A DNA stretch of 64,000 nt from IMG/VR virus record IMGVR_UViG_3300037483_001170, positions 1 through 64,000 of that record, one strand, 5' to 3'. The stretch comes from a virus. Of this stretch, positions 8,120 to 51,767 are shown piece by piece (the stretch's first letter is position 1; the number at the start of each line of letters is the position of its first letter). The position numbers were made by a program, and so were the translations under genes. Under the pieces are notes generated by a model that had not been told where the DNA came from, searched no databases, and saw nothing but the letters and a program-made list of their open reading frames with translations.

Positions 8120-8330
8120 GATTCCAGTAGTAGACTGTAGGACAGCGCGAAACCATTGGCTTTTTCTGCCATCGCCAGTATCCGTGCCAGCCGGACAGGC
8201 CGAGCCGGAGCTGCTTCGGTGCTACCTCGGGTCGTCTGAAAACGCCGCCCCGCAGACGGGCGCTGGCGGTCAGCAACGCCGGTGGTCACGTATGGTCACA
8301 GCGAGCGGCTGCGGATACCTCTCTCTATGC
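8120..8330. repeat. 211-bp non-coding direct repeat, copy A
   Basis: Aligns without gaps to 51557-51767, about 84% identical by manual count. Confidence 0.95.
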
Positions 8331-8370
8331 GCGGGTGTCCGACGGTGTTGCGCTTTGTTGTCCGCGTTGC

Positions 8371-8440
8371 TTGACAGTCTACGCGGCGGCGCTAAGCTCC
8401 ATCCTGAGACCGGCCAACAAGCTGGTCCGAAGGAGACGGC
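8371..8440 (+). promoter_or_regulatory. Promoter + leader hairpin + SD (P1)
   Basis: TTGACA-16-TAAGCT; GACCGGC-CAACAA-GCTGGTC; AGGAG. Confidence 0.85.
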
Positions 8441-8983
8441 ATGGCGAGCGAAAACGTGGTGATCCGACAGGCGGAGCGGGTTGGCGAGCTTGATGCGGTG
8501 GAGCCCGCAAGCGCGCTCCGCTGCGGCCGCTGCGTTGGCGGTGTCACCGTGCACGACGACGACGACGATCGGCACGTGACGGACGTCTGCTACCACTGCG
8601 GTGGCACTGGCTTCGTCGACGAGGAGACCGCGTTCCACGACGAGCTGCGCCGCCTCGCTGGCTACTACGCCTTTCGCGCGGCTCACGAGTACCGGCGGGT
8701 CTGCGACGAGGACCCCGACGGCGAGGACTTCGCCTTCCACGCCGCCGAGAACATGATGACGGCACACGACGCCCTGACCGAGATCACACGGTCGTACGAG
8801 GACAAGTTCGTCGCACAGCTGCTCGCACTTCCGTACGAGATGCAGAAGGTACTCGTCGCGTGGGAGGCGGAGTTCACCGCGTGGGCGGCGGGCCAGCTTC
8901 GGGAGCAGCTGCACGCAAAGAAAGCCGCCGACAAGGCGACAGCGGTCGCGCTCGCCAACAAGGCGCCGCGAGAGGAGTGGTGA
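8441..8983 (+). CDS. Hypothetical protein (CxxCxGxG Zn finger)
   Basis: First gene after P1, with SD. Confidence 0.8.
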   Translation: MASENVVIRQAERVGELDAVEPASALRCGRCVGGVTVHDDDDDRHVTDVCYHCGGTGFVDEETAFHDELRRLAGYYAFRAAHEYRRVCDEDPDGEDFAFHAAENMMTAHDALTEITRSYEDKFVAQLLALPYEMQKVLVAWEAEFTAWAAGQLREQLHAKKAADKATAVALANKAPREEW

Positions 8984-8988
8984 GCGCC

Positions 8989-9327
8989 ATGGCACAGGCG
9001 AAGGTGTTCCACGCGCGTCTGACAGAGGGGGGGCGCGTGTACGACCCACGCACGGATGGCCCCTGGCCGCTCGACGACGAGCACTACACGCTTGTCGCCG
9101 AGGTCGAGATCCCGGACGACGCGACTGAAGCAGAAGCGTGCGAGTTCGCGTTCGATCGGACGAATACGGTCCACCAAGCCTGGTGGCACAACGAAGAGGT
9201 CCGGGCCGCGGAACACGACGCGTATGGGATCGCGCCGCGCTCCACGAGCGTCGGCGACATCGTCGTACTAGTCGGCGGCGGCTCGTTCCGAGTCGAAGGC
9301 ACTGGCTGGACGGAGGTGCCACGGTGA
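8989..9327 (+). CDS. YodL-like protein
   Basis: RSTSVGDIVVL...GW motif; SD GAGGAG. Confidence 0.5.
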   Translation: MAQAKVFHARLTEGGRVYDPRTDGPWPLDDEHYTLVAEVEIPDDATEAEACEFAFDRTNTVHQAWWHNEEVRAAEHDAYGIAPRSTSVGDIVVLVGGGSFRVEGTGWTEVPR

Positions 9328-9740
9328 AGTTCATCGTGCAGAGGAAGATCCTTCGTCGCGGCCGCAGGGGCGGCGGCTACGAGTGGGTCGCCGTGAGCGA
9401 GCACGCTTCACGGCAAGAGGCCATCGAGGCGCGAGCAGAGCAGCCAACCAACAGCGGTCTACGCATTGTTCCGTTCGGCCTCACGATCACGAAGCGTGTG
9501 GCGACCGTCGAAGGGCGCGGCATCTGGATCGATGCGAATGTGGCACTCGACGGGAAGCTCTACTCCGTGAAAGGCATCGTCTATCCGCCACACGGCGTGG
9601 TTGCGCATCACGTCACGTTGGTCACCAACGACCAAGACTCGTCGCGTCAGTCGTCGCAGACAACGAAGCGACAGATCGAAGCGCTGCTCGCCAAGGAGTT
9701 CGAGCTGAAGACGATGGCGGTTTCCGAGGACGACCTGTAA
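9324..9740 (+). CDS. Hypothetical protein
   Basis: GGAGG SD; GTGA overlap. Confidence 0.7.
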   Translation: MKFIVQRKILRRGRRGGGYEWVAVSEHASRQEAIEARAEQPTNSGLRIVPFGLTITKRVATVEGRGIWIDANVALDGKLYSVKGIVYPPHGVVAHHVTLVTNDQDSSRQSSQTTKRQIEALLAKEFELKTMAVSEDDL

Positions 9741-9742
9741 CC

Positions 9743-10027
9743 ATGAGGCCCGTCAAACGCCCGATGCCCAAGGTCAGGCGCCAAGCCAGCACGATGATCG
9801 ATGGCCGCACCGATGCGCGCCACCTCGATGGCGCTCGCATGGAGTACACGCATCGGCAGTGCGGCCGCACGTACGTCATCGATCACAGCAAGAAGCAGCC
9901 CGGCCAGAAGCGCCCGTGGACCGAGGCAGCGGCCAAGTTCTACGCGAAATACTGGTCAGGTTCTCCGCAGTCCGGCGGCTGTATCGCGGTGTGCCCGCTG
10001 TGCGTGAAAGACGGGCGGCGACGATGA
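9743..10027 (+). CDS. Hypothetical protein
   Basis: Coupled ORF. Confidence 0.65.
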   Translation: MRPVKRPMPKVRRQASTMIDGRTDARHLDGARMEYTHRQCGRTYVIDHSKKQPGQKRPWTEAAAKFYAKYWSGSPQSGGCIAVCPLCVKDGRRR

Positions 10028-10446
10028 CGGTGAGCAAGTTCCCGTCACCGAATGCCTGCCCGATTCGCGAGCGCACCGGCGACGGCCGCCCGGTCGGTCG
10101 CTGCTGGTACCACTGCCCAGGCGATGTCTGCCCGCGGCACGGCGACGTGAGCGGACCGCTGACCGAGTACCGGGCAACCGGGCGTCTCACCGACGAAAAC
10201 GATCTCCCGCAGCGCATGAAGGGTGAAACGATGACGATGACGCCCCGCAAGCTGGAACCGGCCGATCCGCACACGAAGCGGAACGTGCTCCGCTGGTTCA
10301 AGACCATCCCAGACCTGGAGAGGGTCGAAATCCTACGCACCCTGACGAAGGAGCTGGGCGGCCGGCTGCTCGAACCGGACGTGCTGGAAGAGCTGGGCCA
10401 CCTCGGCGACGACGTCGCAGACACGATCGAACGACGGCAGACGTGA
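10024..10446 (+). CDS. Hypothetical protein
   Basis: ATGA overlap. Confidence 0.65.
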   Translation: MTVSKFPSPNACPIRERTGDGRPVGRCWYHCPGDVCPRHGDVSGPLTEYRATGRLTDENDLPQRMKGETMTMTPRKLEPADPHTKRNVLRWFKTIPDLERVEILRTLTKELGGRLLEPDVLEELGHLGDDVADTIERRQT

Positions 10447-10483
10447 GTCGGACACCGCCGCGACCGGTCGCTACGTTCGCCGC

Positions 10484-10555
10484 TTGACAGCACGCGCAGC
10501 ATAGCTACTATCTACCCGTGAGCCGGCAAACACGCTGGCCCGAGGAGAGCTGACC
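10484..10555 (+). promoter_or_regulatory. Promoter + leader hairpin + SD (P2)
   Basis: TTGACA-16-TACTAT; GCCGGC-AAACAC-GCTGGC; GAGGAG. Confidence 0.85.
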
Positions 10556-11473
10556 ATGTTCGAGAAGACCGCCCCCGTGACTGGAAGCTGGACCAACATC
10601 ATCTCCGCCATCCAGGCGATGGTCGTCGCCGGCCTCTGTCGCGTCGAGACCTGCGACTACAGCGGCGAGCCGTCCGTGCAGATCGTACTCGGCGACGACT
10701 CCGAGGTCCGTGCGTACTACGCGCGGTGCCTGGTCGAGCGCGAGAAGTACCGCGCGCTCGGCGACTTCCGCGGCGCCGATCGCGTGCTCTGCGACTACCA
10801 GGTCCGCGGTGGCACCGTCGGCGAGCGCCCGTACACGCTCAGCACGAACATCTACGGCTGGGCCATGGGCAGTCACCTGCTCTCGAACCTCGGTGGCGGC
10901 AAGTTCGCGATCACCAACCGTGGCGCGACGCTGGAGCAGTGCATCGTCGAGGGCTGCGAGCTGGCGCGCGTCAAGGGCACGACGCTGACCTTCGGCGCGC
11001 TGGGCGACACGCTCGGTGACGCGGTGGCGCTCGTGCGGCTTGCTGGCGGAACCGAAGAGCAGGTCGCCATCGTACTCGCTGGCCCGGCTCGGAAGGCTGC
11101 GCGCGCCGCGGAGAACGCGGCACGCCAGGCCGAGTACGCCGCGCGCCAGAAGGAGCTGGAGGCGGCGCGCGTGACGTGCCTGACGGTCATGGAGGCCGTC
11201 CGCGCTCCGTACCTCACGGGATGGGCCAAGTCGTGTCGCGTGGAGAGCGCCATGATGGGTACCGCGGTGGGCTTCACGCTCCGGGGCAAGACCCACAACC
11301 CGAGCATCACGTGCCAGATTCACGCGGGCGGCTACGTCGTTCGCCGTACCGACTTCGACGGCGTCCGCAAGCACGTCACGATCGTCGGCGAGGGCACGGG
11401 GCTGACCGTCGAGGCCATCTCGAACGCGCTGCGCGAGGCGTGGCAGACGATGAGCGCGGAGCGGGCGTCGTGA
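10556..11473 (+). CDS. Hypothetical protein
   Basis: 305-aa ORF after P2. Confidence 0.8.
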   Translation: MFEKTAPVTGSWTNIISAIQAMVVAGLCRVETCDYSGEPSVQIVLGDDSEVRAYYARCLVEREKYRALGDFRGADRVLCDYQVRGGTVGERPYTLSTNIYGWAMGSHLLSNLGGGKFAITNRGATLEQCIVEGCELARVKGTTLTFGALGDTLGDAVALVRLAGGTEEQVAIVLAGPARKAARAAENAARQAEYAARQKELEAARVTCLTVMEAVRAPYLTGWAKSCRVESAMMGTAVGFTLRGKTHNPSITCQIHAGGYVVRRTDFDGVRKHVTIVGEGTGLTVEAISNALREAWQTMSAERAS

Positions 11474-11805
11474 GCGCGTTCATGGTGCCGTACTACACGC
11501 GCAAGGCGTTCCTCACGTGCGAGGACGAGCGCGGCGAAGGGCAGGCCATGCCGGCGGACGTCATGTCGCGCGAGGCGTTCGCCGCGGAGTGCGGCATCGT
11601 CGCAGACGACGTCGAGGTCATCGAGGGGAAGTGGTGGTCGCGCCTGAGCGCGCCGGGATACATGGACTGCACCAACTGGCATGGGCCGTTCGACACGGAG
11701 CAGAGCGCGAAGGATGCGCTCGCGAAGTGGTACGACGTCGATCCGGAGACAGGCGAAGACATCGAGGACGAGACGATCGACACCGCGCCGGAGGCAAACC
11801 GATGA
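11470..11805 (+). CDS. Hypothetical acidic phage protein
   Basis: GTGA overlap; WWSRLSAPGYMDCT.W.GP motif. Confidence 0.7.
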   Translation: MSAFMVPYYTRKAFLTCEDERGEGQAMPADVMSREAFAAECGIVADDVEVIEGKWWSRLSAPGYMDCTNWHGPFDTEQSAKDALAKWYDVDPETGEDIEDETIDTAPEANR

Positions 11806-12101
11806 AGTACGCAGAAAAGCAGATGCTCCACTCCGCGCTCCAGGCTCTGTATCGGCATGCAGAAATCGTTTCCGGAGCCTACAAACATCGCCGTACGCAG
11901 CGCGGCGTGGAACCGGAGAATTACGAGAAGTACGTGCAGCTCGGCCTGCTGACCGACGAGTCCGTCAGGGAAGCGCGTGAGCACGGCACCTTCCCGTTCC
12001 GCGATCTGAGCGACGACGAGAAGCTCGACGACGCCCTGGGCATCATGCAACGACACATCGCGACCGTCCGTGAGTGCATGGATCACGAGGACAAGCCGTG
12101 A
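11802..12101 (+). CDS. Hypothetical protein
   Basis: GGAGG SD; ATGA overlap. Confidence 0.7.
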   Translation: MKYAEKQMLHSALQALYRHAEIVSGAYKHRRTQRGVEPENYEKYVQLGLLTDESVREAREHGTFPFRDLSDDEKLDDALGIMQRHIATVRECMDHEDKP

Positions 12102-12574
12102 GCATCGAGATCATCCGCAAGCGAGAGCGTCGCGAGGAGACGATCTACCAGCTGGTGTTCGACGGTGTTGCCGACCGGGGACGCGGCTTCGCCTTCCCGT
12201 GCGACGCAGAGGGCAACGTCGATCTCAGCGTACTCCAACCTGCCGCCCGCAAGGCGTACGACGAGCTGACGGCAACCGGCGCCGCGAACGTCTTCGACGA
12301 CTCCAGGCGCTGCCTGGTGACCGTGCAGCACCACCCGCCGCGCGTGCACACGTTCACACGCGGATGGACGGAAGAGGCGATCGGTCGCTGCCAGTGCGGG
12401 CGCAAGATCGGCCTCGGGCGCTTCACGAACACGTGCGAGTGCGGTCGCGACTACAACGGCTCCGGCTCGCTGCTCGCCCCATGCGAATTCTGGGGGGAGG
12501 ATACGAACGAGACTGTCGACGACATCCTGTCGGTCGACAGCGCGAGCGTCGAAGACCTACTGGGCGGTGACTAG
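12098..12574 (+). CDS. Hypothetical Zn-finger protein
   Basis: CQCG...CECG; GTGA overlap. Confidence 0.7.
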   Translation: MSIEIIRKRERREETIYQLVFDGVADRGRGFAFPCDAEGNVDLSVLQPAARKAYDELTATGAANVFDDSRRCLVTVQHHPPRVHTFTRGWTEEAIGRCQCGRKIGLGRFTNTCECGRDYNGSGSLLAPCEFWGEDTNETVDDILSVDSASVEDLLGGD

Positions 12575-13127: not shown

Positions 13128-13194
13128 CAGTGCGCGGCCGATGGATACACTGCCAAGCAGAGCCTGCCGCACATGGCGGGCCGGGGAGATCGAG
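13124..13194 (+). promoter_or_regulatory. Promoter + leader hairpin + SD (P3)
   Basis: TTGACA-16-TACACT; GCCTGCC-GCACAT-GGCGGGC; GGGGAG. Confidence 0.8.
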
Positions 13195-17307: not shown

Positions 17308-17381
17308 TTGACAATGGTCGCGCAATGGCTAGAGTGCCGACTGAGCCGGCAAACACGCTGGCCGAGGATGGGCAGGACGCG
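17308..17381 (+). promoter_or_regulatory. Promoter + leader hairpin (P4)
   Basis: TTGACA-16-TAGAGT; GCCGGC-AAACAC-GCTGGC. Confidence 0.85.
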
Positions 17382-26263: not shown

Positions 26264-29200
26264 ATGGCTGCACCCAGGAAGAAGAAGGCTCCGAAGCCCG
26301 AGCCTCAGAAGCTCGTCGACATGCTCACGACCGCCCAGCGCGCGATCGTGCAGCATCGCGAAGGGCCGCTGCTCGCAGGCGCGGTCGCTGGGTCCGGCAA
26401 AAGTTCCTGCATGGTCGAGCGCGTCGCGCACCTCGTGCAACACGGAGTTCTACTCTCGCGCATCTGTATCGTCGCCTTCAACGTAAGCGCAGCAGAAGAC
26501 CTCAACCGGAAGCTCAAGAAGCGGCTGAAGGGCGTTCCCGGCGTTGACCTCAGCGCCCATCCCGCTCGCACGCTGCACAGTCTTGCGCTCATGGTCTTCA
26601 AGAGCGACGACGAGAACGAGGCCACGCGCGTCGGCAACGTCGAACCGTTCTGGACAAAGGCGATCCGCGAAGCACACGCGGCGCTCGGCATCACCGACGC
26701 AGACGTCGATCTTGTGAAGGAGTTCTCGTCGAAGGTCCGCAACGACTACTTGCCGTCGCCGGACTTCGTCGGAGACTTCGACATCCGAAAGCTCCACTCC
26801 GACCTTGTCGCAGCAGCGGACGCCACCATCGAAAGCAAGAAGGCGCCGAAGCTCAGCCTCGCGCAGCTGCTCGAAGTGTTCTGCAAGGCTGATCGCGCGC
26901 GCCGCGCGGGCCGCGTCACCGGCACCGACGGATTCGCGTTCGCGACCTTCGACGACATCCTGTGGGAAGCCGCTCGCATCATGGAGCACAACGCTGGCCT
27001 CCGGGACGTCTGGCAGCGACGCTACGACCACGTCATCGTCGACGAGGCGCAGGACTTGTGCGAGGCGCAGTGGCAGCTGATCGAGCTGATCGCGGCCGGC
27101 CATCGCAACCTCGTAGTGGTCGGCGACGTGGCGCAGTGTGTAGCTGCCGGAACCCTCGTCAGCACGCCAACTGATGCACGACGTATCGAAGACCTAGCCT
27201 CTGGCGACGTCATTCTTGCTTTCCGCAACGGCCACAACCGGCCGCAACGCGTTGACAAGAGCTGGTCTACGGGCCTCCGCAGGTGCGTCACGATAAACAC
27301 CAAAAGCGGCCACCGCCTGACCATGTCCGTCGATCATCGTCTCTGGACGACGACGCCAGATATCAGACGACCTGGCGAAATGCTCGTGTACATGATGTAT
27401 CGCTCCGGATTTGGATTCCGTATAGGCATAACCAATCGTGCCATGAACTCGGCGCAAAACCAATGGGGCAACAGACTCAACAGCGAGGGAGCAGAGCGAC
27501 TTTGGATCGTAGCGTACGGTCAGGATCGCGAAGACGCCCTGTTCCGCGAGACGTCTCTTAGTCTGACCTACGCCATACCGACCGCGCTCTTCAACGCCGC
27601 ACACCGTGGTCTTAACCAAGAACGCGTAGACGCTATTTTTGCCGCCTTTGGCGAGAATGGCCGACGACTTTTGGCCGACCTAGACCTCTCGTTCGATTAT
27701 CCGCACTGGATGTCTGGCTCAACAAGTGGTTTGCGTACTGCCAAGATTGTCAGTCGCTCCACGCGACGAGTCGTTCGCGTCACCTCTCATGGGCCCAAGG
27801 GCACTGGCGTTCGCCTGGAGTGGAGTGGCGGACGCGAGGTAGACATCAAAGGACTCGGCGTCAACATCCGCCCTGCAAAGAAGGGCGGCAACGTCATTCT
27901 GAAGCTATTCGCATCGCACCGTGCTGCCACTGCCTTTGCTGCCCAGCTAGCAGAGCGCGCCGGAGCTTCTGTTATCGATGTATTGTCGTGTTCCGATGCA
28001 CTAACCAGTGCAGGGCTCCATGGCGGCAGCGCCAAAACACGGAACCTGCGCCTCTGTACGGCCGGTAGCTTGTACGTCGGCATGGCAGTGCCGGTCCAAA
28101 CCAACGAAGGATACCGTATAGAGGAAATCGTCGATCTTGAACGTGTCACGGCTGAGTGTTTCGATCTTAGCGTAAACGATGCCGAAACCTTCTACGGTAA
28201 CGGCATTTTGACGCACAACTGTCTGTACAGCTTCCGCGGAGCACGGCCCGAACACGTCATCTCGTTCGCAGACCGCTGGGGCTCCACGGCGATCTACATG
28301 GAGGAGAACTTCCGCTCTGGCGGCGACATCCTCGCGTGCGGAAACCGCGTGCTCGATGCGATGGATGGCGATTCCAAGCTGCCGATGCACTTGAAGCCCA
28401 CGCGCGGCGTCCCTGGCTTCGTCGGTCGCATGGTGTCTGACACTCCGATAACTGAGGCCTCTGCGCTCGCACTCGCTTGCGCTGCACAGAAACAGCGCGG
28501 ACGCGAGTGGCGCGACATGGCCATCCTGATCCGGCTCAACGCGCAGTCGAAGGACATCGAGCTGGAGTTCTTCAGGAAGAAGGTGCCGCTGCGGATGATC
28601 TCCGGCACGAGCTTCTTCAGCCTCAAGGAGGCCAAGACGATGCTCGGGTACTTCCGGCTCATCCTTGGCAAGGCGAACGAGGACGATCTCTACATCGCGA
28701 TCACGAGCCCCGGCCGATACCTCGGCAAGGCCTTCGTCGAAAGCGTGGCTCGCGTCGACAACAGCGTCGGCGACTGGGTCGAGCGCATCCCTCGCTGCGA
28801 TGCGTACGCCGGCCGCGCGGCAGACACGGCGCGACAGTTCGTCGAGCAGATCAAGGAGTGGCGCTCTTCGATGCTCCGCGGCGCCACGCCGTCGCAGCTG
28901 CTGACTCGCATCATCGAGCAGACGCAGTACACGCAGTGGCACGTCAAGGAGCAGGCCGAGGGCAACGAGTCCAGTACCTTCGTGGACACGATGGCTCGCA
29001 TCCGCTCGTTTACTGAGGAGTTCGAGTCCGTCGAGTCCATGCTGACGATGGTCGACGAGATGCGAGCACAGCAGCGTGCGGCGGCGCAGAGCCGCAACGC
29101 CGTCGCGGTCATTACCGTACACGCATGCAAAGGGCTCGAATGGCCCGTCACGTTCATCCCGGGGCTCACGAGCCAGCACTGGCCGGTTCCGTGGGGCACT

Positions 29201-29407
29201 GAACGCGAAGAGCTTCGCTGCTTCTACGTCGCGGTGACGCGAGCGCGGGATGAGTGCTGGATCAGCACGTACGCCCGTAGCGGCAATGTCGACGACAAGC
29301 CGATCGGGCCGTCGTCCTATCTCGACTTCGTCCCCGCCAGCGAAGGTGTGCCGGCGCTGCCACCGCCGCCGCCGAGCGCTGACCCTGGCCAGCTGAGCCT
29401 GATCTAG
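26264..29407 (+). CDS. uvrD: UvrD/Rep SF1 helicase containing an intein
   Basis: AVAGSGKS, VDEAQD, VVGDVAQ|CLYSFRGA, ENFRS, TVHACKGLEW, YVAVTRAR. Confidence 0.92.
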   Translation: MAAPRKKKAPKPEPQKLVDMLTTAQRAIVQHREGPLLAGAVAGSGKSSCMVERVAHLVQHGVLLSRICIVAFNVSAAEDLNRKLKKRLKGVPGVDLSAHPARTLHSLALMVFKSDDENEATRVGNVEPFWTKAIREAHAALGITDADVDLVKEFSSKVRNDYLPSPDFVGDFDIRKLHSDLVAAADATIESKKAPKLSLAQLLEVFCKADRARRAGRVTGTDGFAFATFDDILWEAARIMEHNAGLRDVWQRRYDHVIVDEAQDLCEAQWQLIELIAAGHRNLVVVGDVAQCVAAGTLVSTPTDARRIEDLASGDVILAFRNGHNRPQRVDKSWSTGLRRCVTINTKSGHRLTMSVDHRLWTTTPDIRRPGEMLVYMMYRSGFGFRIGITNRAMNSAQNQWGNRLNSEGAERLWIVAYGQDREDALFRETSLSLTYAIPTALFNAAHRGLNQERVDAIFAAFGENGRRLLADLDLSFDYPHWMSGSTSGLRTAKIVSRSTRRVVRVTSHGPKGTGVRLEWSGGREVDIKGLGVNIRPAKKGGNVILKLFASHRAATAFAAQLAERAGASVIDVLSCSDALTSAGLHGGSAKTRNLRLCTAGSLYVGMAVPVQTNEGYRIEEIVDLERVTAECFDLSVNDAETFYGNGILTHNCLYSFRGARPEHVISFADRWGSTAIYMEENFRSGGDILACGNRVLDAMDGDSKLPMHLKPTRGVPGFVGRMVSDTPITEASALALACAAQKQRGREWRDMAILIRLNAQSKDIELEFFRKKVPLRMISGTSFFSLKEAKTMLGYFRLILGKANEDDLYIAITSPGRYLGKAFVESVARVDNSVGDWVERIPRCDAYAGRAADTARQFVEQIKEWRSSMLRGATPSQLLTRIIEQTQYTQWHVKEQAEGNESSTFVDTMARIRSFTEEFESVESMLTMVDEMRAQQRAAAQSRNAVAVITVHACKGLEWPVTFIPGLTSQHWPVPWGTEREELRCFYVAVTRARDECWISTYARSGNVDDKPIGPSSYLDFVPASEGVPALPPPPPSADPGQLSLI
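27137..28219 (+). mobile_element. Intein (361 aa) in UvrD motif III
   Basis: Starts CVAAGTLV, ends FYGNGILTHN with +1 Cys; removal restores GDxxQ-C-LYSFRGA; lower GC. Confidence 0.92.
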
Positions 29408-30558: not shown

Positions 30559-31692
30559 CTACGCCGCCAAGCGGCGCGCCTCCCGAAGGCTCTGCCCGAG
30601 CCGGAGGATGTTCTTCGCAGCGTTCACGTCCCGATCTGCGGTGTACCCGCAGTCAGGACACGCGTGCACACGGACGCTCAGGTCCTTCGGCACGATGACG
30701 CCACACGCAGAGCAGGCCTGCGACGTCCCACGCGGATTCACCTTCACCAGCTCGCGACCGGCGCTTTCAGCCTTGTACACGAGGATGTCGATGAACTGGC
30801 CCCAGCCAGCGTCGTAAACCTGCTTCGAAAGGAAGCCTTGCGCGAGACCCTTGATGTTCAGATCTTCTACGCAGATGAAATCGTTCTCCTTCACGAGCTG
30901 GAGTGCCGTTACATGCTGGAAGTGCCGCCGTTGCCTAGCCACCTTCAGATGCAACCTCGCGACGCTGCGCTGCGCCTTCCGACGGCGCTTGCTCTTCTTC
31001 TTGCGACCCGAGACCTTTTGCTGGGCAACAGCGAGGCGGGCCTGCGCGGCCTCATGGTATCGCGGGTTCCTAATCGGATAGTCGCCATCTATCGATGTGA
31101 CCGCAAAGCTCTTGATGCCCACGTCGACGCCGACTTCGCGACCAGTCGTGGATAGCAGCTTCGCCGGCACGTCGGCGCAGACGAGCTGCGCATACCAGTG
31201 GCCATCTCCTCGACGCAGAATGCGAATCTGCTTGAGCTTGCCCTCGTGTTCGCGATGCAATTTGATCTTCACGTTGCCGATGCCGTGGATACGTAGGCGG
31301 CTGCCGCCTGCGCATAGGATGGCGCCCCTGCGGTTTGCGGCGTCAGTGAACGTGAAGCTCTCGTACTGCCCGCGACCCTTGAAGCGCGGGTACCCAGGCG
31401 TCTGGCCGGCTTTGCAACGACGGAAGAACCCTTTGAATGCCAGGTCGGCACGCGAGATGGCGTCCTTTAGTAGATGGAAGTGAACGGCTGCGTACTCTGG
31501 ATCATGAGCGCGAATTGCCTTGACCTGCGCGTCTTGCACGCGCTTCGTGACGCTCACGCGCTGCTTGGTCCAAGCCTCGCGGCGCTCTTGAATGCAACCG
31601 TTGTACAGCTGCCGGAGCAGCCAGCACGTACGAGCGAGCGCAGCGTTTTGCGAACGCGTCGTGTACAATCGAAAGTCGTAGACCCTGACCAC
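30559..31692 (-). CDS. tnpB: TnpB RNA-guided endonuclease (IS200/IS605 family, no TnpA)
   Basis: YDFRLY, GYPRFK, GVDVG, VEDL, TSQACSACG..CPDCG, DRDVNAAKNI; D-E-D triad intact; start GTG inferred. Confidence 0.93.
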   Translation of the reverse strand: MVRVYDFRLYTTRSQNAALARTCWLLRQLYNGCIQERREAWTKQRVSVTKRVQDAQVKAIRAHDPEYAAVHFHLLKDAISRADLAFKGFFRRCKAGQTPGYPRFKGRGQYESFTFTDAANRRGAILCAGGSRLRIHGIGNVKIKLHREHEGKLKQIRILRRGDGHWYAQLVCADVPAKLLSTTGREVGVDVGIKSFAVTSIDGDYPIRNPRYHEAAQARLAVAQQKVSGRKKKSKRRRKAQRSVARLHLKVARQRRHFQHVTALQLVKENDFICVEDLNIKGLAQGFLSKQVYDAGWGQFIDILVYKAESAGRELVKVNPRGTSQACSACGVIVPKDLSVRVHACPDCGYTADRDVNAAKNILRLGQSLREARRLAA

Positions 31693-31738
31693 GCCCCCGA
31701 CGCTACCACGGCGCTCGCCGCTGTTATACACTTCCGGC

Positions 31739-32581
31739 ATGTCGTACCGCGCGCCGATTCGTCGTCCTGGTCTCGGCCAGGCCAAGTGGGTTCCAGGGCA
31801 GCTCAGCTTCCAGGCGTTGCCGCCTGGTGTGACGGCGCCGCCCGACTTCCAGCGGCTTCGAGAGGCGGGTCTGCCGATCGCGCCGTACATCGAGCACGGC
31901 AGCTGGGAGACCGGCGAGCCTGATGTAATGAGGTACGGGTTCGATCCGTACAGGGGCATCATGGGGCTCGGCATGCTGCCGCCCGGGAACATTCCCGGGC
32001 TTCGTCGACGACTTCGGCGAGCACACGCTGGCCCCAGGGGTCTGGGAGAGAGCGGAGACGGCCTCGGCTGCTTTCTGGCCACGCTCTTCCGCGGCGCTGC
32101 CGGCCCCACCCCGCAGGAAGCAGCTGCGGCGGCAGTGGCAGCGGCCAGACCCGACCTCGTCCCGTCCAGGCTGATGCCTGGCGCACCAGGGCATCCGCCC
32201 GTGCCCCCGCGCACCGCTCCGGTCACCACAGGCAGCCCCGCTGACCTCGGAACCGGCACGGTCACCTGCAACGGTCAGGTCGTCCTCAGCAACGCCGACT
32301 ACTCGACCGCCATGGGCATCGCAGCGGTGACGGCACGACGGAACCAGTCCCCGTGCACCGTACGAGTCACCGGCGGCGTCATCGGCTCACGCACGATCAC
32401 GGTCGGCCCGAGCGGTCCCGCGGCCGTCTCCGGGCTCAGCGGCTGGGCGGACGGCATTCCGGTCATGGGCGCGCTCGTCGGAGCAGCCATCGGTGCAGGA
32501 GTTGCCCATGCGGCGCAGCAGAACCCGGTCGCCGGTGGCGTGATCGGGGCTGTGATCGGTTCGCTCACGCGACAGACGTAA
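31739..32581 (+). CDS. MSY/GLG-motif protein with C-terminal glycine-zipper membrane segments
   Basis: Several GLG motifs; GxxxGxxxG TM; leaderless TACACT-6-ATG. Confidence 0.7.
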   Translation: MSYRAPIRRPGLGQAKWVPGQLSFQALPPGVTAPPDFQRLREAGLPIAPYIEHGSWETGEPDVMRYGFDPYRGIMGLGMLPPGNIPGLRRRLRRAHAGPRGLGESGDGLGCFLATLFRGAAGPTPQEAAAAAVAAARPDLVPSRLMPGAPGHPPVPPRTAPVTTGSPADLGTGTVTCNGQVVLSNADYSTAMGIAAVTARRNQSPCTVRVTGGVIGSRTITVGPSGPAAVSGLSGWADGIPVMGALVGAAIGAGVAHAAQQNPVAGGVIGAVIGSLTRQT

Positions 32582-32584
32582 AGC

Positions 32585-33397
32585 TCATCGCCGTGACCTA
32601 TGGTGCCTACCCGAGCCGCCGCGTCCGAATGTCCGTGCCGGCGTCGGCGACGCCGTCAGCCTCGGTACCGCTTCGTCGAGCAGCTTTACGTCATATCCGG
32701 CGTCTGACATTTGCTTTCTTACTCGCAAAGCAAGTGCCATGTCCCCCTCTCTAAGCATCCCAATCTTCACGAGAGGCATGCCGCGGCTCAAGAGTCGGTC
32801 CGGCGCCCAATATGTCACGTTCAATCCGGCCATATTCAAATCATGAACTGACACGACGCACCCCGCCTTGAACCCAGCCGCACACATATGTGCCGTCAAG
32901 CCATGTTCGTAACGCTGGATGATTTGCTGCTTGTCCTGGAGCGGTACCGCGTTTTCCCAAAACTCCGTGAACGCGGAAGAGGCGCAAACGCGCTGCTTGT
33001 AAACAAGGAAATATCCTTGGAGATTCCAGCCCATTTCCGTGCCATCTGTCATACCCCAGAAATCGCACGGATCTTCGCTCATCCGGTTCATCAAAGCACC
33101 AAGATCGCCCACTGGACCCAGGGTGCTGGAGTTCACGATGACTAGCTCATCGTAGTCCGATGCTGGCGTTTCCTTTAGCGTACTACGGTACATCTCCACG
33201 TCGAAACCGTCGTTTGGGATCTGACGCACCTGATCAACGAGAGGCCTCACGCCGTTGACTTGGGCCTCGCCCAGGCCAGCGGTTGAGACGAAAATCAGCC
33301 GTTCAGCAAGCGGACGCAGTGCCTTGAGCATGAACCTGACGTAGCCTTTGACCGTAGGTTCGCGGTCATAGTGCGCGTAGATGATAAGTCGCCTCAC
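32585..33397 (-). CDS. RgpF (rhamnan synthesis F)-like protein
   Basis: YAHYD, NDGFD, YDELVIVNSS..GP, DFWGMT, LQGYFLV. Confidence 0.8.
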   Translation of the reverse strand: MRRLIIYAHYDREPTVKGYVRFMLKALRPLAERLIFVSTAGLGEAQVNGVRPLVDQVRQIPNDGFDVEMYRSTLKETPASDYDELVIVNSSTLGPVGDLGALMNRMSEDPCDFWGMTDGTEMGWNLQGYFLVYKQRVCASSAFTEFWENAVPLQDKQQIIQRYEHGLTAHMCAAGFKAGCVVSVHDLNMAGLNVTYWAPDRLLSRGMPLVKIGMLREGDMALALRVRKQMSDAGYDVKLLDEAVPRLTASPTPARTFGRGGSGRHHRSRR

Positions 33398-33404
33398 GAC
33401 GCTA

Positions 33405-34016
33405 TTACCTCCTGTAGACGACGATCATGCGACGTCGCACTTCGACGCGCAGCGCTGAGTCTGGCGGAAACTCGCCATCACAAAAGAACTCCCCGTCGTC
33501 TGGCCCGATTACTGTTTGCGAGAGCAGGCCACCGATCCTTCCCGGCTCGAACGCGGGGAGATGCCAGTCCTCGACCACATAGATGCCGCCCGCTCGAAGT
33601 AGTGGCCAGCATAGCGCGAAAGCCGCCTCGATCGACTCGTAACCGTGCGCGCCATCGTCAACGATCATGTCGAAGCTGCCAGGCGCAAAGTCGAGCTTCG
33701 TTGGCATTTTGCGATGAATGAACTCGATATCCAGTTCCGCCAATGCGGCCAGCGACCAGGCGCCTGGGGCGACGCAGTCAACGCCGACCACGCGCGCTTT
33801 CGGCCATAGCGAGCGCCACATTAGCAGGCTCCCGCCATCTGCAATGCCGATCTCAAGCACGGACTCTGGCGTTCGGCGGCCGAGCACCTCTTCGTAGGCC
33901 GCCAACGTCTGGCGGTCCTTCTGGTGCACAATGTCTTCGGCACATCGCTCTAGTGACCTAACGTACGACAACGAAGAGCCGCCGACGTTGATTCGCCCAC
34001 GAAATACATCCATCAC
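33405..34016 (-). CDS. Class I SAM-dependent methyltransferase
   Basis: VLEIGIADGGS, FDMIVDDGAH, LRAGGIYVVED. Confidence 0.85.
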   Translation of the reverse strand: MMDVFRGRINVGGSSLSYVRSLERCAEDIVHQKDRQTLAAYEEVLGRRTPESVLEIGIADGGSLLMWRSLWPKARVVGVDCVAPGAWSLAALAELDIEFIHRKMPTKLDFAPGSFDMIVDDGAHGYESIEAAFALCWPLLRAGGIYVVEDWHLPAFEPGRIGGLLSQTVIGPDDGEFFCDGEFPPDSALRVEVRRRMIVVYRR

Positions 34017-35193
34017 GGCTCGCGCCTCTCGTTCGAAGCTGCCTGGGTTGCCTGCAAGTTGAACGGATGAATCCGCTTGTACGTCACGAGTGCGTCGACA
34101 GGCCAGACAGGCCCGTATCCCGCAGAAATCAACTGCCGATAGAACACGCCATCAGCAGCGTACTCGATTTCTTTCGATGCTATTGGCCATTGCGGCACCT
34201 TCTCGAAGACGACGCGCCGGTGCGCCACCTGCGACTGATCGAGCTTGCCGTACACGTCTGTCACCGGGCCGCCCGGAAACAGCCCGCGTTCTGCGTCTTC
34301 GTCTTCGAGCATGTACCGGAGCCGCCCGTACCCCATCACCTTGTCTGGGTCCGCAAAGATCGTGTCGAAGTGTCGAAAGCGCTCGGAGGCAAAAAAGTCG
34401 TCATCCGGGATGTAGTGAATCACGTCTCCCTTCACGAAGGTCAACGCATCATTGATGCGCTGCACTCGCGCGCACCCGGCGGGGGCCTGTCGGCCGCGAT
34501 CAGCAGACGGAACCGCGGATCGACATCTGTGAACGAACGAATGACGGACAACGTCTCCTCGTTCGACGCGTCGTCGCTCACGACGCACTCCCAGTTCGGC
34601 CGTGACTGCGTAACGATCGCTCGCAGCGTCTGCGCCACGTACTTCGGCCGGTTGTAGCTACCGACAACCACTGAATGCGTGATGGCACCTGGCGCCGCGG
34701 AGGCCATGTGCACGACGTCGGACCCTGGCAGCACACCCAGCGTCTGAAAACCGCTCCGCTCATAGAGCCGACGGGCCCGCTCGTTTGTGCCCTTCACGTC
34801 CAGCGTGACGCGCTCGAAGCCCATGGCGAACGCCTGGTCGACCACGGCCCGTAGCGCTCTGCGACCGTAGCCGCGGCCCGTCAGATCCGCGCGGCCTACA
34901 TAGAACCGGCCGAACGTGACGGTTCCTGTGTCGCGGTCCGCCCCGTACAGCGACACGTGTCCGATGACGCCGCAGGCTTCATCTCCGAACACCCAGACCA
35001 CCTGCCCGTCCACGTCCGGCTCGTACTTGGTCTCGTACCACGACATGTGCTCGTCGTACGACAGTTCCCTGTCGGTATGAAACTGCTGCCGGATTCGCGG
35101 ATCGGCGCGCCATGCCCTCGTCAGATTCAGCCACTGTGGCCCGAGAAGATCGAACCAAAGCCCCTCAGCCGCGAACCGCTTACGCAGCGTCAT
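34013..35193 (-). pseudogene. GNAT acetyltransferase-GT2 glycosyltransferase fusion, frameshifted near 34470
   Basis: GRGYGR/NERARRLYERSGF then SYNRP..VSDDASN in one frame; INDA..HYIPDDDF in another; matches paralog 37024-37695. Confidence 0.75.
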
Positions 35194-45492: not shown

Positions 45493-45545
45493 GCCGAAAG
45501 TCTCGCGCACTCGGAGCCCAAGGGCAAGACCGAGGCGAACGACGA

Positions 45546-45842: not shown

Positions 45843-45854
45843 GCTCACTCCTTC

Positions 45855-46987: not shown

Positions 46988-47020
46988 GCTTTAGGCTACC
47001 AGTTGCAGCACGTGGCGGCC

Positions 47021-47347: not shown

Positions 47348-47355
47348 ACGCCCTC

Positions 47356-47655
47356 ATGAGCTACAAGCACGGCTTCGGACAGGCGGTCGCCGAGGGCACC
47401 GTCTTCAGCCTCACCGATCCGGATGTTGCTGCTCAGCAGCCGCCGACGCCCGTGCCCTCCAGCAAGCCGAGCGGTGGCTCTCCAGCTCCGTACTACGGAC
47501 CGCCCGCCACCGTCGGCAAGACCTCGGGCACGCCGATCACGAGCGCGAGCTTGCCGACGTACGCGGCTGGCGCGCCGAACTGGATGCCGTGGGCGATCGG
47601 TGGAACGATCACCGTGGTCGGCATCGGGCTCGTACTGGCAGCGCTACGTCGCTGA
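47356..47655 (+). CDS. Small membrane protein (MSYKHGFGQA)
   Basis: Pro-rich linker; C-terminal TM plus RR. Confidence 0.7.
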   Translation: MSYKHGFGQAVAEGTVFSLTDPDVAAQQPPTPVPSSKPSGGSPAPYYGPPATVGKTSGTPITSASLPTYAAGAPNWMPWAIGGTITVVGIGLVLAALRR

Positions 47656-47940
47656 TCAGGTAGGCGCCGCGGGCGTTCGACGCTCTGCACACAGCAGGCA
47701 GCAGGCGAAGCCCACCACGCGTAGCGCCGTCCCCGTCTCGTACAGCCACGTCCAGCGTGTAGCGAGGCCACACCGTGCGCACTGGCCGACGTCGACGACT
47801 GCGACGCGGTACAGCGTCGATCCGTCAGCGTAGGTCGCCATAGGCTCGGGCGTCGTCACGCACGCCTCCGCCGTCGCGACGAGCGCACGGGCACCGCGAC
47901 GACGAGCGTCACCATCAGACCGCTGATCTCGACACGCGCT

Positions 47941-48243
47941 TCACCGTGGACATGCAGACGGCAGCCGAGGATGCCGCCAGCCCCGAAGTACGTCGGCTGG
48001 CATCTGCGCATGTGCAGCCATCTGGGCCCGATAGTCGTACCGACGTAGGGCACGAACCTCTTCCTCGATCTGCGCAGCTGGCCAGCGATGACGCAGGCCT
48101 CGCTCTCGTACGAGCTTCTCCATCTCAGCCTTTGCCTGCTCGACCGCCGACGCGGGCGACAGCGCATCGAGAACGAGTACCGAGATCTCGTCGTACCACG
48201 TGATACAAACGGAGTACTCGACCGATGCGCCGTCTGCTTGCAT
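47941..48243 (-). CDS. Hypothetical protein
   Basis: TGATG coupling. Confidence 0.55.
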   Translation of the reverse strand: MQADGASVEYSVCITWYDEISVLVLDALSPASAVEQAKAEMEKLVRERGLRHRWPAAQIEEEVRALRRYDYRAQMAAHAQMPADVLRGWRHPRLPSACPR

Positions 48244-49385
48244 CAGACCGTCTCGTACACGTACGTGCCGCGCTCGCCGGTACGCGTCAGCTTGCCGGCC
48301 TTCACCAGGTTGTAGACCGTCTGCATGACGACGTCCTGATCGATGTGCGAGAGCTTCGCGATGAGAGCGCCCATCTTCATCGGCGATCGGCACGCGTCGA
48401 GCACGGCGCCGACGCGAGAGCCAGGCGGCGCGATCTTCTTGGCCTTCTTGGTACCGGACTTCAGCGACACACCCTCGCGGGACGCTTCGGACTCGATCGC
48501 GCGATCCAGCTGCGCGCGCGCTGCCACGGCCGCCGCCTTCGCCTTGACCGGCTTGGCCGACGCCTTCGGAAGCGTGTAGAGGTACTGGTAGCGCGCACCC
48601 GTGCGCACCAGCCTGCCCGTGCGCACCAGTTCGCTGACCGCTGCGTTCACCGTGCTCTCCGTCGCCGCCGCGCCGACGCGTGCGCGAACGGCACCCATGT
48701 TCATCGGAACGTCGCCACACGCAGCCAGTATGGCGTCGCGCGCGGTCATCGGCGCCGGCAGCACGTTCACGACGGCTGACGCCGTCGACTCGCTCGGCAG
48801 CGCGTAGAGGTACTTGCCAGACGAGCCGGTGCGCACCAGCAGCTTGGCCTTCACGAGCGCCAAGATCGCCGGTCGCACCGAGTTGTCGTCAGCGTCGATG
48901 CGCATGCGCTGACGAAGCTCGGTCGTCCCGATACCGACTGCGCGCCCGGCTGCGCGCACCGCCAGCAACACCTTCTCGCGCATGGTGCCCGGCGCAGCGA
49001 TCACGCGCTCACGCACAGCGTTCGGCGCCTTCGTGGTCTCGGCCCCCTTGACGCTCTTCGTTACCAGCATCTTCGCGGCCGTGGCCGTGAGCTGAGCCTC
49101 GGGCGTGCCGATCTGCATCGAGCCGAAGTGGCTGGTCAGCACACTGATCGCGTCGTCGAGGATCGCGATGCCATCCACGAGCCGCTGCCGCTCCTCTTCC
49201 GTCGACACCACCGACGCTCGCAGCTCGTACAGACGCGCATCGCGTTCGCCGAGTAGCGCAGCTCGCTTCGAGCGCTCGCCCTGCATCTCGCCCAGAGCCT
49301 TCCGCGCCTGCGCGATGTGCTCGCCCATGGTGTGAGCGAGCTGTTGCGCCATCTTCGTCACGTCCACCGTCTTCGCTGTCGTCAT
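48243..49385 (-). CDS. Coiled-coil protein with three tandem winged-helix repeats
   Basis: LVKAKLLVRTG..YLY / LVRTGRLVRTG..YLY / LVKAGKLTRTG..YVY. Confidence 0.7.
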   Translation of the reverse strand: MTTAKTVDVTKMAQQLAHTMGEHIAQARKALGEMQGERSKRAALLGERDARLYELRASVVSTEEERQRLVDGIAILDDAISVLTSHFGSMQIGTPEAQLTATAAKMLVTKSVKGAETTKAPNAVRERVIAAPGTMREKVLLAVRAAGRAVGIGTTELRQRMRIDADDNSVRPAILALVKAKLLVRTGSSGKYLYALPSESTASAVVNVLPAPMTARDAILAACGDVPMNMGAVRARVGAAATESTVNAAVSELVRTGRLVRTGARYQYLYTLPKASAKPVKAKAAAVAARAQLDRAIESEASREGVSLKSGTKKAKKIAPPGSRVGAVLDACRSPMKMGALIAKLSHIDQDVVMQTVYNLVKAGKLTRTGERGTYVYETV

Positions 49386-49450
49386 CTTCCCAGTCTTTCT
49401 TTTCTTCTGCCCAGATCTGCCCAGAAGCGCGCCGTTCGGACGCGCCTCGC

Positions 49451-49744
49451 TTACCTGCCGTCCATCACACGGCGCCACTTGTCGAGTACGCGCTCGATCG
49501 CGTCTGGATCAGGCGTTGCCTGCTGGTCTGCCCAGGCCTCCAGCGCCTCCTGGAACACGTCCTGAAGCGCGAGCAGCGTATCGATACGCTCGCCGTTGAC
49601 CTTAGAGATCACGCGATCGATCGCTTCCAGCGCCCACTCTGCGTTGGCCGAACGATCCGCCTTACGAACGGTTTCCGCCGCCTCATCGTCGAGAAGAGCC
49701 GCACGCACACGCGCCCTGTACTGCCCCCGAGTCGCTGCGCTCAC
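49451..49744 (-). CDS. Hypothetical protein
   Basis: GTGA overlap. Confidence 0.6.
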   Translation of the reverse strand: MSAATRGQYRARVRAALLDDEAAETVRKADRSANAEWALEAIDRVISKVNGERIDTLLALQDVFQEALEAWADQQATPDPDAIERVLDKWRRVMDGR

Positions 49745-50037
49745 GAAAGCCCCCACGTCGCCTCACGCGCCGAGACCGCCGAGTCGTGGATCACCTGCTG
49801 CGAGAGGCCATCGAGACCCGCCTCGAACATCGCGCGCAGCTCCGGATGATCACGCAACGCATCGGCCCGCGCGTGGCTCGGCCCTTCGAACAAAAGGGCG
49901 CAGATCTCACGCGCGACCTCCGCACGACGCTGATCGTCGCTGAGTCGGCGAAAACCGACGCCCCATCGCGTCGCCGCGCGAATCGCGCACTTGCGGCCAA
50001 CCGTTCGAAGCAGGTCGTGCGTATGTTCGGTGAGCAT
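49741..50037 (-). CDS. Hypothetical protein
   Basis: Start set from the P5 SD. Confidence 0.65.
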   Translation of the reverse strand: MLTEHTHDLLRTVGRKCAIRAATRWGVGFRRLSDDQRRAEVAREICALLFEGPSHARADALRDHPELRAMFEAGLDGLSQQVIHDSAVSAREATWGLS

Positions 50038-50111
50038 CTGAACGTTCCTTCCGGCCGGCATGGTCGCCAGCTCAACGAGCGTGATTCTAGTCAGCCATCG
50101 GTCGCTGTCAA
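50038..50111 (-). promoter_or_regulatory. Promoter + leader hairpin + SD (P5)
   Basis: TTGACA-16-TAGAAT; GCTGGC-GACCAT-GCCGGC; AAGGA. Confidence 0.8.
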
Positions 50112-50145
50112 GCGCCTAGCGCAACAAAGCGCAGCAACGTCCGAC

Positions 50146-50481
50146 CTAGCGCCAGAAATAGATCGTCGAGTAGTTGCCCCCGGTCTTGCTCGCGAAGTTC
50201 GCCGCCGCCAGGATCTCCGCCGCGTCGCAGCACTTTCCGACGTCGCGCGTGGCGATGATGTCAAGCAGCACGCGCTTGGCCGAGTCGTGCAGCCAGCCCC
50301 CGTCGTCGAAGAGCAGGCTGGCAGCGGGTGACCGCGGAACATCGCGGTACGGGTCGCCGAGCGTTGGGCAGTTGCCTCGCGCGTCGAACAGCTCCGCCAA
50401 CCTCTTCGCGTCGTCCACGGCCTTCTCCTCAGCTTCGTGCTCGGCCCACTCGCGATGATGCCGCTTCTCTCGGCGGCTCAC
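50146..50481 (-). CDS. Hypothetical protein
   Basis: GTGA overlap. Confidence 0.6.
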   Translation of the reverse strand: MSRREKRHHREWAEHEAEEKAVDDAKRLAELFDARGNCPTLGDPYRDVPRSPAASLLFDDGGWLHDSAKRVLLDIIATRDVGKCCDAAEILAAANFASKTGGNYSTIYFWR

Positions 50482-50777
50482 GACTTCGCCGCCCGCTCGC
50501 CCATCAGCGGCATCACCGCCGCAGCGAAGCCCGCGTCCGTGTGCGTCTCGCGCTTCCGGATGCAGTCGGCTTCCGCTTGCTCCAGCGTGTCGCCGCCGCC
50601 GAACGTCTCGTCGCGGCGTCCGTGGGGACCGCGCGCCTTCGGCCTCAGCGTACGAACGCTGACCGTCCACGACGAACCGTCGCGCATGACGCCGAAGCGA
50701 ACCTCTACGTCCTCCGCGTTGCAGCCGAACGCAGCGGCCACGCGCTTGACGGTGGCGATGAACTTCTGATCCTTCAT
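50478..50777 (-). CDS. Hypothetical protein
   Basis: First gene after P6. Confidence 0.7.
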   Translation of the reverse strand: MKDQKFIATVKRVAAAFGCNAEDVEVRFGVMRDGSSWTVSVRTLRPKARGPHGRRDETFGGGDTLEQAEADCIRKRETHTDAGFAAAVMPLMGERAAKS

Positions 50778-50846
50778 GACGCTCTCCCGAGCCAGCTTGT
50801 TGGCCGGCTTCCCAGCTCACACTAGCCATCGCCAGAACGGTGTCAA
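50778..50846 (-). promoter_or_regulatory. Promoter + leader hairpin + SD (P6)
   Basis: TTGACA-16-TAGTGT; GCCGGC-CAACAA-GCTGGC; GGGAG. Confidence 0.85.
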
Positions 50847-50847
50847 G

Positions 50848-51372
50848 CTACTTACGCTCTTCTGGTTTTCCGCAGAACAGGCAGTAGTCGTGACACGTGT
50901 CTTCGTCATCGTCGTAGACGCACTTCGGAAGGGGGTTCTCCGCAGCCGGGCACTCGTGATAGCCCACGAAAGGGTTCTCGATCGATGCAGTCAGCTTCTC
51001 GACCGCCCGTGCGCCCAGGAGTGCGTACTGCTTGCTGCGCGCCTCACGGAGCCTCTCGATCTGAGCATCGAGCTTCGCGATGCGCGCGAGAAGCGCCGCA
51101 GCCTCTGCCGACGGGACACGACGAACAGCCGGCTCGCCGCGTCGCACACGCCGACCCGACAGCATCTTGCCGATCTTCTTGGCCAGCTCAGCGTGCAGAT
51201 CCCGATCGAGCACATCGCCAAGGCTGAGGCCGCCCCGCCCAAACGTGCCACTCGTGCGCGTCGTCCACCGACCGTCCGACCTCACCTGCACCTTGACGAG
51301 CGCGGCGTCGTCATCGCAGCGCGACACGAGAGCCCGGTACTTCACACCATCGTGCTGAACCTGCGAAATCAT
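50848..51372 (-). CDS. Hypothetical protein with C-terminal Cys-rich domain
   Basis: Start set from the P7 SD; CLFCGKPEERK end. Confidence 0.7.
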   Translation of the reverse strand: MISQVQHDGVKYRALVSRCDDDAALVKVQVRSDGRWTTRTSGTFGRGGLSLGDVLDRDLHAELAKKIGKMLSGRRVRRGEPAVRRVPSAEAAALLARIAKLDAQIERLREARSKQYALLGARAVEKLTASIENPFVGYHECPAAENPLPKCVYDDDEDTCHDYCLFCGKPEERK

Positions 51373-51447
51373 GGTTTCCGCTCTCCTCTGAGCCAGCTTG
51401 TTGGCCGGCTTCAGCCAAGACAATAACACCTCCTCTCCGCGCGTCAA
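51373..51447 (-). promoter_or_regulatory. Promoter + leader hairpin + SD (P7)
   Basis: TTGACG-16-TATTGT; GCCGGC-CAACAA-GCTGGC; GAGGAG. Confidence 0.85.
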
Positions 51448-51556
51448 GCGTCAGACCACAACAGATCGCAGCACAGCCAAGACAGTATCCATGCCAGCGG
51501 CCGTCCACCTCATCGCCAATTTCATTACTAGCGGACGAGGCCGGCGCCTGGAGGGA

Positions 51557-51767
51557 GATTCCAGTAGTAGCCTGTAGGACAACGCGAAACCATTGGTTTT
51601 TTCTGCCATCGCCAGTTTCCGTGCCAGCCGGACAGGCCGAGCCCCAGCCCCTTCGGTGCTACCCGTGGTCGTCTGAAAACGGCGGGGCGTAGACGGGCGC
51701 TGGCGGGCGGCAATCCACGTGGTCACGTATGGTTATTCCAGAAGGCTCGATATACCTCTCTCTATGC
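51557..51767. repeat. 211-bp non-coding direct repeat, copy B
   Basis: Colinear with 8120-8330. Confidence 0.95.

Follow-up and report, generated by a model that had tools for sequence, protein, structure and literature searches.

A module of 214 nucleotides (nt), present in two diverged copies in the viral DNA analysed here, is a strongly constrained and previously uncatalogued non-coding element of a narrow lineage of uncultivated phages with genomes of roughly 300 kb. This DNA, hereafter the window, comprises positions 1 to 64,000 of the IMG/VR record IMGVR_UViG_3300037483_001170 (G000; 106,780 bp, GC content about 65%, CheckV completeness 47%). The two copies, A and B, occupy divergent intergenic regions at the head of early genes, and three further copies were identified in the nearest relative of the phage. 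We tentatively read the module as the gene of a structured RNA, and weigh this reading below against control by DNA-binding proteins and other alternatives.

Within the window, the copies (8120-8333 and 51557-51770) can be aligned gap-free from end to end at 84% identity (BLAST E = 2.6e-62), and they are the only two in the record. The first-pass annotation of the window, made from the letters alone, had described two repeats of identical length, free of insertions and deletions (indels), with about 34 mismatches; this description holds, and the alignment extends to 214 nt. The six invariant blocks that it listed are all found in both copies, as are its inverted repeats GCCAGC/GCTGGC and CGTCTG/(C/T)AGACG.

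The relative, reached through the SNF2/DUF6011 helicase encoded to the left of copy A, is IMGVR_UViG_3300033233_000001 (G001; 297,749 bp, 90% complete), in which the helicase is 81% identical and the module occurs three times, at G001:C1:64834-65050 (-), 101032-101248 (-) and 253802-254017 (+). Synteny links the 101-kb copy with copy A, both being upstream of the helicase gene, and the 65-kb copy is probably orthologous to copy B, because a leftward promoter sits at a like relative position beside each of them (-143 and -144). The two genomes differ by roughly 30% in the DNA of the module region. Across the five copies, which have a GC content of 58-64%, about 80 positions are invariant and fall into some 11 distinct, non-repeated blocks (TTCCAGTAGTAG, CGAAACCATTG, TTTTC, GCCAG, CGTGCCA, CTTCGG, AAAAC, GGC, GCAA, TGGTCA-N4-TGGTCA and TACCTCTCTCTA). 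The spacing of the blocks is nearly fixed, the few indels (1-3 nt) all lie inside predicted loops, and conservation has sharp boundaries at both ends. The repeat thus persists in a related genome almost free of indels, with no sign of the indel decay that had been considered for it at first pass. Copies within a genome differ at 27 and 54 positions and orthologues at 61-68, which implies that copies exchange sequence by gene conversion; no paralogy was found among the genes flanking them.

The same comparison bears out the earlier view that the repeat does not encode a protein. Variable columns are distributed 40/39/36 over the three codon phases without a period-3 pattern, no reading frame open in all five copies was found, and 1-nt indels are present in the copies of G001; the module is therefore non-coding, neither a preserved open frame nor a third-position bias, the two marks looked for in coding sequence, being found in it.

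Further homologues are scarce. Pattern scans of IMG/VR, JGI metagenomes and GTDB genomes, in which candidates were screened with nhmmer or model R1, returned only the copies of G001 itself, and an exact-match scan of IMG/VR returned nothing. No copy was found in eight phage records encoding a helicase of 37-51% identity, nor any match in 50,697 GenBank phage records, in which identity to the helicase reaches only about 33%; Logan and ENA contigs encode closer helicases (P0003-P0007), with 60-75% identity. DNA contigs of the source run contain two extra partial variants of the module and a soil run contains a diverged piece of 151 nt, from which it follows that more copies exist; the module has been met in two assembled genomes and as traces in three metagenomes.

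The genomic setting is the same throughout. In all five copies the 3' end of the module, marked by the CCTCTCTCTA block, lies 29-50 bp upstream of a near-consensus sigma70-like promoter of the same direction (TTGACA-N16/17-TAnnnT), beyond which come a leader hairpin and a gene, and on the opposite side a leftward gene or promoter stands at 60-200 bp, the setting being a divergent intergenic region each time. This agrees with the earlier placement of the repeats between a leftward gene start and a rightward hairpin-promoter: copy A is bounded by the start of the leftward helicase gene (8059) and by the promoter at 8371, and copy B by a leftward promoter (51447) and a rightward one (51797). The copies mark major divergent junctions of the gene map, not every one. 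Since the distance from module to promoter varies on either side, the module appears to be self-contained rather than phased to a promoter. Palindromes of the TGTCnGACA type, about 240 bp apart, bracket the helicase-adjacent copy in both genomes (in G001:C1:94000-108000, denoted L183, around 7290 and 7040) and were not found at the other copies.

Our tentative preference, held with rather low confidence, is that the module is a gene on the + strand for a structured non-coding RNA of roughly 210 nt. Such an RNA would be read in the same direction as the early operon downstream, the phage keeping several dispersed copies of its gene. It would begin with about 145 nt of 5' and central sequence made up of conserved blocks, continue with a 3' hairpin composed of a copy-specific outer stem, an internal loop with GCAA and an inner stem UGGUCA/UGGUCA formed through G-U pairs, and terminate in a single-stranded pyrimidine tail, ACCUCUCUCUA. 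This tail resembles the ACCUCC anti-Shine-Dalgarno tail of 16S rRNA, and by virtue of that likeness it might pair with purine-rich Shine-Dalgarno-like tracts. A longer stretch of window positions 8300-8330 and of the 65-kb copy of G001, GCGGCUG(C)GGAUACCUCUCUCU, likewise resembles the 3' end of 16S rRNA (GCGGCUGGAUCACCUCCUU), although all copies share no more of it than the ACCUC core and the run of pyrimidines.

The data show the sequence conservation and the capacity for the 3' hairpin, while transcription, the RNA ends and a binding partner are inferred. Distinct blocks, sharp ends and indels confined to loops are typical of RNA families; on a DNA reading, many different binding proteins would be needed. 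The outer arms of the 3' hairpin are complementary yet different in each copy (GCGGUC/GGCUGC, CGGGC/GCUCG, AGCCG/CGGCU, CGUCGCGC/GCGCGACG and AGCGC/GCGCU); native arms pair better than swaps between copies, with 3 of 120 permutations doing as well, and none of 52 chimeric alignments keeps the helix of this hairpin. The inner stem, GUGGUCA-CGUA-UGGUCAC in copy A (8282-8299) and (G/A)UGGUCA-loop-UGGUCA(C/U) across copies, can form on the + strand only, because two G-U pairs are required; its substitutions (G-C to G-U to A-U, and U-G to C-G) preserve pairing on that strand alone, and as DNA it is a direct repeat of TGGTCA, 10 bp apart. The two source-run variants carry C>T and A>G in the arm CAGACG, each compatible with wobble pairing on the + strand only. 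Stem clusters common to the five copies number 8 (225 bp) on this strand, compared with 3.2 +/- 1.9 in column shuffles (as high in 5 of 200) and with 6 (149 bp) on the opposite strand. The candidate hairpin further upstream (Table 1) has as its equivalents in G001 UCGAC/GUCGA, CCGGA/UUCGG and GUUCGA/UCGGAC.

Table 1. Positions of the two module copies, their internal features and the neighbouring elements in the window.
Feature	Position	Equivalent in copy B	Strand	Remarks
Copy A of the module	8120..8333		+	Syntenic with G001:C1:101032-101248; upstream of SNF2/DUF6011 helicase gene
Copy B of the module	51557..51770		+	Probably orthologous to G001:C1:64834-65050
5' terminal block TTCCAGTAGTAG	8122..8133	51559-51570	+	Abrupt onset of conservation
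Blocks GCCAG and CGTGCCA	8172..8189	51609-51626	-	Minus strand TGGCACGGATACTGGCGA, sigma54 -24/-12-like
Candidate hairpin GCCGAG...UUCGGU	8199..8220		+	Formable in 5 of 5 copies; not significant alone
Candidate 3' hairpin	8266..8312	51704-51749	+	Outer arms 8266-8271 and 8307-8312
3' terminal block TACCTCTCTCTA	8316..8327	51753-51764	+	Conservation stops a few bases on
Partial second GCCAG/CGTGCCA blocks	51479..51496		-	Left flank of copy B; minus strand TGGCATGGATACTGTCTT
Promoter TTGACA-N16-TAAGCT after copy A	8371..8398		+	Outside the repeat; followed by leader hairpin, Shine-Dalgarno site and ATG at 8441
Sigma70-like promoter TTGACA-N16-TAGAGT after copy B	51797..51824		+	
Sigma70-like promoter left of copy B	51420..51447		-	Leftward
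Palindrome TGTCAGACA	8096..8104		.	15 bp left of copy A
Palindrome TGTCCGAC	8336-8343			Just right of copy A

Much of the folding and promoter evidence, however, weighs against an RNA gene. Folding energy does not improve on that of dinucleotide shuffles: z-scores of the whole module range from -1.3 to +1.2 over all copies and both strands, and those of the 3' domain from -2.6 to +1.4, the two window copies giving no signal. The covariation term of RNAalifold is positive, that is a penalty, on both strands, and with five sequences fixed-column pairing and covariation are no higher than in shuffles. The column-shuffle null used for the stem clusters is itself lenient, because GC-rich palindromic words are destroyed in it. 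Averaged base-pair probabilities retain the UGGUCA hairpin only, the half-swap chimera test supports no helix except the 3' hairpin, and whole-structure models were rejected, since none of the combinations of long-range helices considered was close to minimum free energy in every copy. Rfam 15 gives no match at gathering score over the whole window and only chance-level ones, at E up to 10, on both loci, so that the Rfam comparison yields no credible family for the repeat. Neither a sigma70-like promoter nor an intrinsic terminator (hairpin and T-run) was found within the module on either strand, so that the promoter and terminator of an independent small RNA (sRNA) gene are both lacking; the phage's own promoters are near-consensus, yet none fits the module, and no recognisable gene for an RNA polymerase or a sigma70-family factor was found in either phage.

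The nearest counterparts would be multi-copy sRNA paralogues of the Qrr1-5 or GlmY/GlmZ type, which are likewise dispersed, diverged intergenic units of 100-250 nt with blocks between variable stems; the module differs in having no known promoter, terminator or sequence or Rfam similarity, and in its weak thermodynamic and covariation support. Four non-coding RNAs are annotated in the jumbo phage PA5oct (PMC7318152). A more specific form of the RNA reading, which we regard as rather speculative, is that of an undescribed class of phage structured RNA without a canonical promoter, of which each genome in the lineage of about 300 kb would keep at least three copies where early transcription units begin, and whose conserved, anti-Shine-Dalgarno-like pyrimidine tail ACCUCUCUCUA and GCAA-loop hairpin, reminiscent of those in the leaders of the phage's early mRNAs, would titrate a factor or messenger RNA (mRNA) sites and so control early expression.

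A separate observation concerns the 3' hairpin of the 65-kb copy of G001 (G001:C1:64834-65050), whose 5' arm and loop start (GAGCCGGCAA...GCUGGU) equal the stem and loop start of early-mRNA leader hairpins (GAGCCGGCAAACACGCUGGCC), found in the window at 10515-10545, 17338-17368 and 55061-55091; the same RNA-binding factor might act on the module 3' hairpin and on the leader hairpins. As for single motifs, the core AGTAGTAG of the 5' block has no other occurrence in the record, and this confinement to the module led us to reject the block as a promoter motif used generally by the phage. TGCCAGC was similarly set aside as a genome-wide operator, with 28 copies against roughly 24 expected by a hand estimate from base composition.

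The first-pass annotation had offered two alternatives, a DNA site bound by several proteins and a structured RNA of unknown kind. Both are still live, and the repeat is non-coding and rigidly spaced as described there; the specific DNA functions then suggested, namely an origin, an excision site or a packaging signal, fare badly, as discussed below. The DNA-level reading that deserves most attention, possible if on the doubtful side, is a control region in which a fixed array of protein-binding sites occupies the divergent promoter region. Read most specifically, it would hold an enhancer-dependent sigma54-type promoter firing leftward, with TGGCACG-N4-YTGGC as its -24/-12 element. TGGTCA-N4-TGGTCA and the CCTCTCTCTA block, located 95-165 bp upstream, would then serve as activator sites, and the blocks GAAAA, CAATGGTTTCG and CTACTACTGGAA as a conserved leader. 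Activator sites usually lie at such a distance upstream.

The divergent setting of every copy, in which leftward transcription or a leftward gene starts 60-200 bp away, suits such a control region, which moreover requires no promoter or terminator of its own and accords with folding z-scores near 0. TGGCACG is invariant and matches the -24 element exactly, a TG follows at -14/-13 spacing in all five copies, and the direct repeats TGGTCA and GCCAG, each present twice, are spaced by 10-12 bp. The -12 position, nevertheless, is G in all five copies, the region reading TGG, and a GC reading needs a forbidden spacing of +1; measured against GG at -24 and GC at -12, 10 bp apart (TGGCACG-N4-TTGCW), the -24 element is therefore perfect and the -12 element is wrong. 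Salmonella sigma54 sites with T or A at -12 (PMC3844500) lend some tolerance in this respect. On an approximate sigma54 matrix the window copies score below 8 bits, while about 40 random places of the record reach at least 8 bits. Partial extra TGGCA(C/T) motifs flank four copies (Table 1 for copy B; similar sites stand beside the three copies of G001, at varying distance and orientation), but these represent only about three independent events. No enhancer-binding AAA+ activator (PF00158) was found in G000 or G001, although a host activator is possible. Conservation shows no 10-11-bp periodicity (10.5 bp was tested), some 11 different blocks would demand many factors, and the copy-specific complementary arms of the 3' hairpin and its G-U strand bias are left unexplained. 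Compared with sigma54 (RpoN) promoters having upstream activator sites, the module thus shares TGGCACG, the TG 4 nt on, repeats about 100-165 bp upstream and rigid spacing, and departs from them in its G for the near-invariant -12 C, its low scores, the lack of an activator gene and the presence of complementary arms in a supposedly untranscribed part.

Two canonical sites of the form TGGCAC-N5-TTGC elsewhere in the record also count in favour of sigma54 control. These sites, TGGCACTTGCTTTGC and TGGCACGCGGCTTGCT, at window position 32739 (-) and at G000:C1:104960 (+, beyond the window), stand in AT-richer, intergenic-looking stretches, about 0.24 being expected by chance (again a hand estimate from base composition), and some phage genes may be transcribed with sigma54 provided by the host.

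The copies seem improbable as replication origins, of which each phage genome would then have several. They are intergenic and flanked by divergent transcription, copy A adjoins a helicase gene in both genomes, and copy B coincides with the minimum of the cumulative GC skew of the window. This last point loses its force because the gene strand switches at copy B, which accounts for the turn. Apart from two hexamers the copies lack iterons, and they have neither an AT-rich unwinding stretch nor a match to a DnaA box. In G001 the cumulative skew peaks once, at 139 kb, and is lowest at the contig ends, away from the copies at 65, 101 and 254 kb; the proposed origin is poorly supported. The skew of G001 is of interest in its own right: it climbs steadily to 139 kb and then drops to the contig end despite many gene-strand switches. 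Such a course, whose two extremes lie in the middle of the genome and at the contig ends, resembles the pattern left by replication.

Still less credible is a non-autonomous mobile element or its relic, for instance a palindrome-associated one moved by an IS200/IS605 Y1 transposase, or a stand-alone guide-RNA scaffold of TnpB. The sharp ends of the module, its strand-specific sub-terminal hairpin with G-T pairs and its lack of terminal inverted repeats and target duplication would suit such an element. A sub-terminal hairpin and the absence of terminal inverted repeats and target duplication recall IS200/IS605 ends, and these ends, their non-autonomous derivatives and TnpB omega-RNA scaffolds are also about 200 nt long. 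Suitable enzymes are at hand, since six TnpB-like proteins and a Y1 transposase are encoded in G001 and one further TnpB-like protein in the window. Only two and three copies exist, however, in syntenic places of genomes diverged by roughly 30%, and the module has therefore not moved recently; none resembles a flank of any tnpA or tnpB gene, none adjoins tnpB, and Rfam, its IS605 and TnpB RNA motifs included, gives no match. The repeat is consequently neither an insertion sequence end nor a miniature inverted-repeat transposable element, the identities that had been named as counter-evidence to a functional site.

The TnpB-like genes (Pfam Cas12f1-like_TNB zinc ribbon) themselves lie at 30559-32271 (-) in the window and in G001:C1 at 10354-11742, 33190-34494, 48626-50299, 127215-127916, 170288-171967 and 176960-178213, the IS200/IS605 Y1 transposase gene (48593-48955, -) standing beside one of them; seven over both phages are an unusually high load of RNA-guided nucleases for a phage.

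Recombination or resolution sites that excise or invert the intervening 43-kb segment are the least probable of these functions. The direct orientation of the repeats in the window and the closer likeness of copies within a genome than of orthologues, with the gene conversion that it implies, speak for it; identity of only 84%, without a long identical core beyond short blocks, conservation of both positions in G001, the inversion of the third G001 copy and the absence of a noticeable recombinase gene beside any copy speak against it, as does the lack of hybrid A/B junctions on the source-run contig stretch examined. The 43-kb circle once envisaged is accordingly not favoured. A packaging signal, finally, does not fit, a single signal being incompatible with three or more dispersed copies.

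Repeated modules at early promoters have a precedent in the PeSL (promoter-early stem-loop) repeats of T4-type phages, reportedly described by Arbiol, Comeau and Krisch in 2010. These, too, are repeated non-coding modules at the early promoters of large phages, and the promoter and leader-hairpin cassettes that follow the module look PeSL-like; the module, in contrast, is separate from the promoter cassette at a variable distance, is far longer and stands at only 2-3 of many early promoters. When the window is compared with L183, an extra cassette is seen to be inserted in the window between copy A and the gene at 10556-11473 (region 8371-10480), comprising a promoter, a leader hairpin and genes at 8441-8983 and about 9859-10446; the counterpart of the gene at 10556-11473, with 62% identity, comes directly after the syntenic copy in G001 as the first gene there. 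This insertion suggests module shuffling at repeated promoter and hairpin cassettes. Elsewhere in the window, the gene at 26264-29407 (+) encodes a UvrD-type helicase of 1047 amino acids interrupted by an intein, whose Hint and intein-splicing domains, at about residues 292-652, separate the N-terminal from the C-terminal helicase domain.

Gene regulation in the giant phages of soil and sediment is almost unknown, and the module marks the main divergent early-promoter regions of one of their lineages. If it acts as RNA, it would add to the known phage RNAs a new family that is synthesised in an unusual way; if it acts as DNA, it would be an unusually large and rigid control region, possibly recruiting the host sigma54 polymerase, and we know of no description of such recruitment by a region of this kind in phages. 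Although its reach is limited for now by the few genomes in which it has been met and by the lack of a cultured host, the module provides either way a concrete handle on the organisation of early transcription in these phages.

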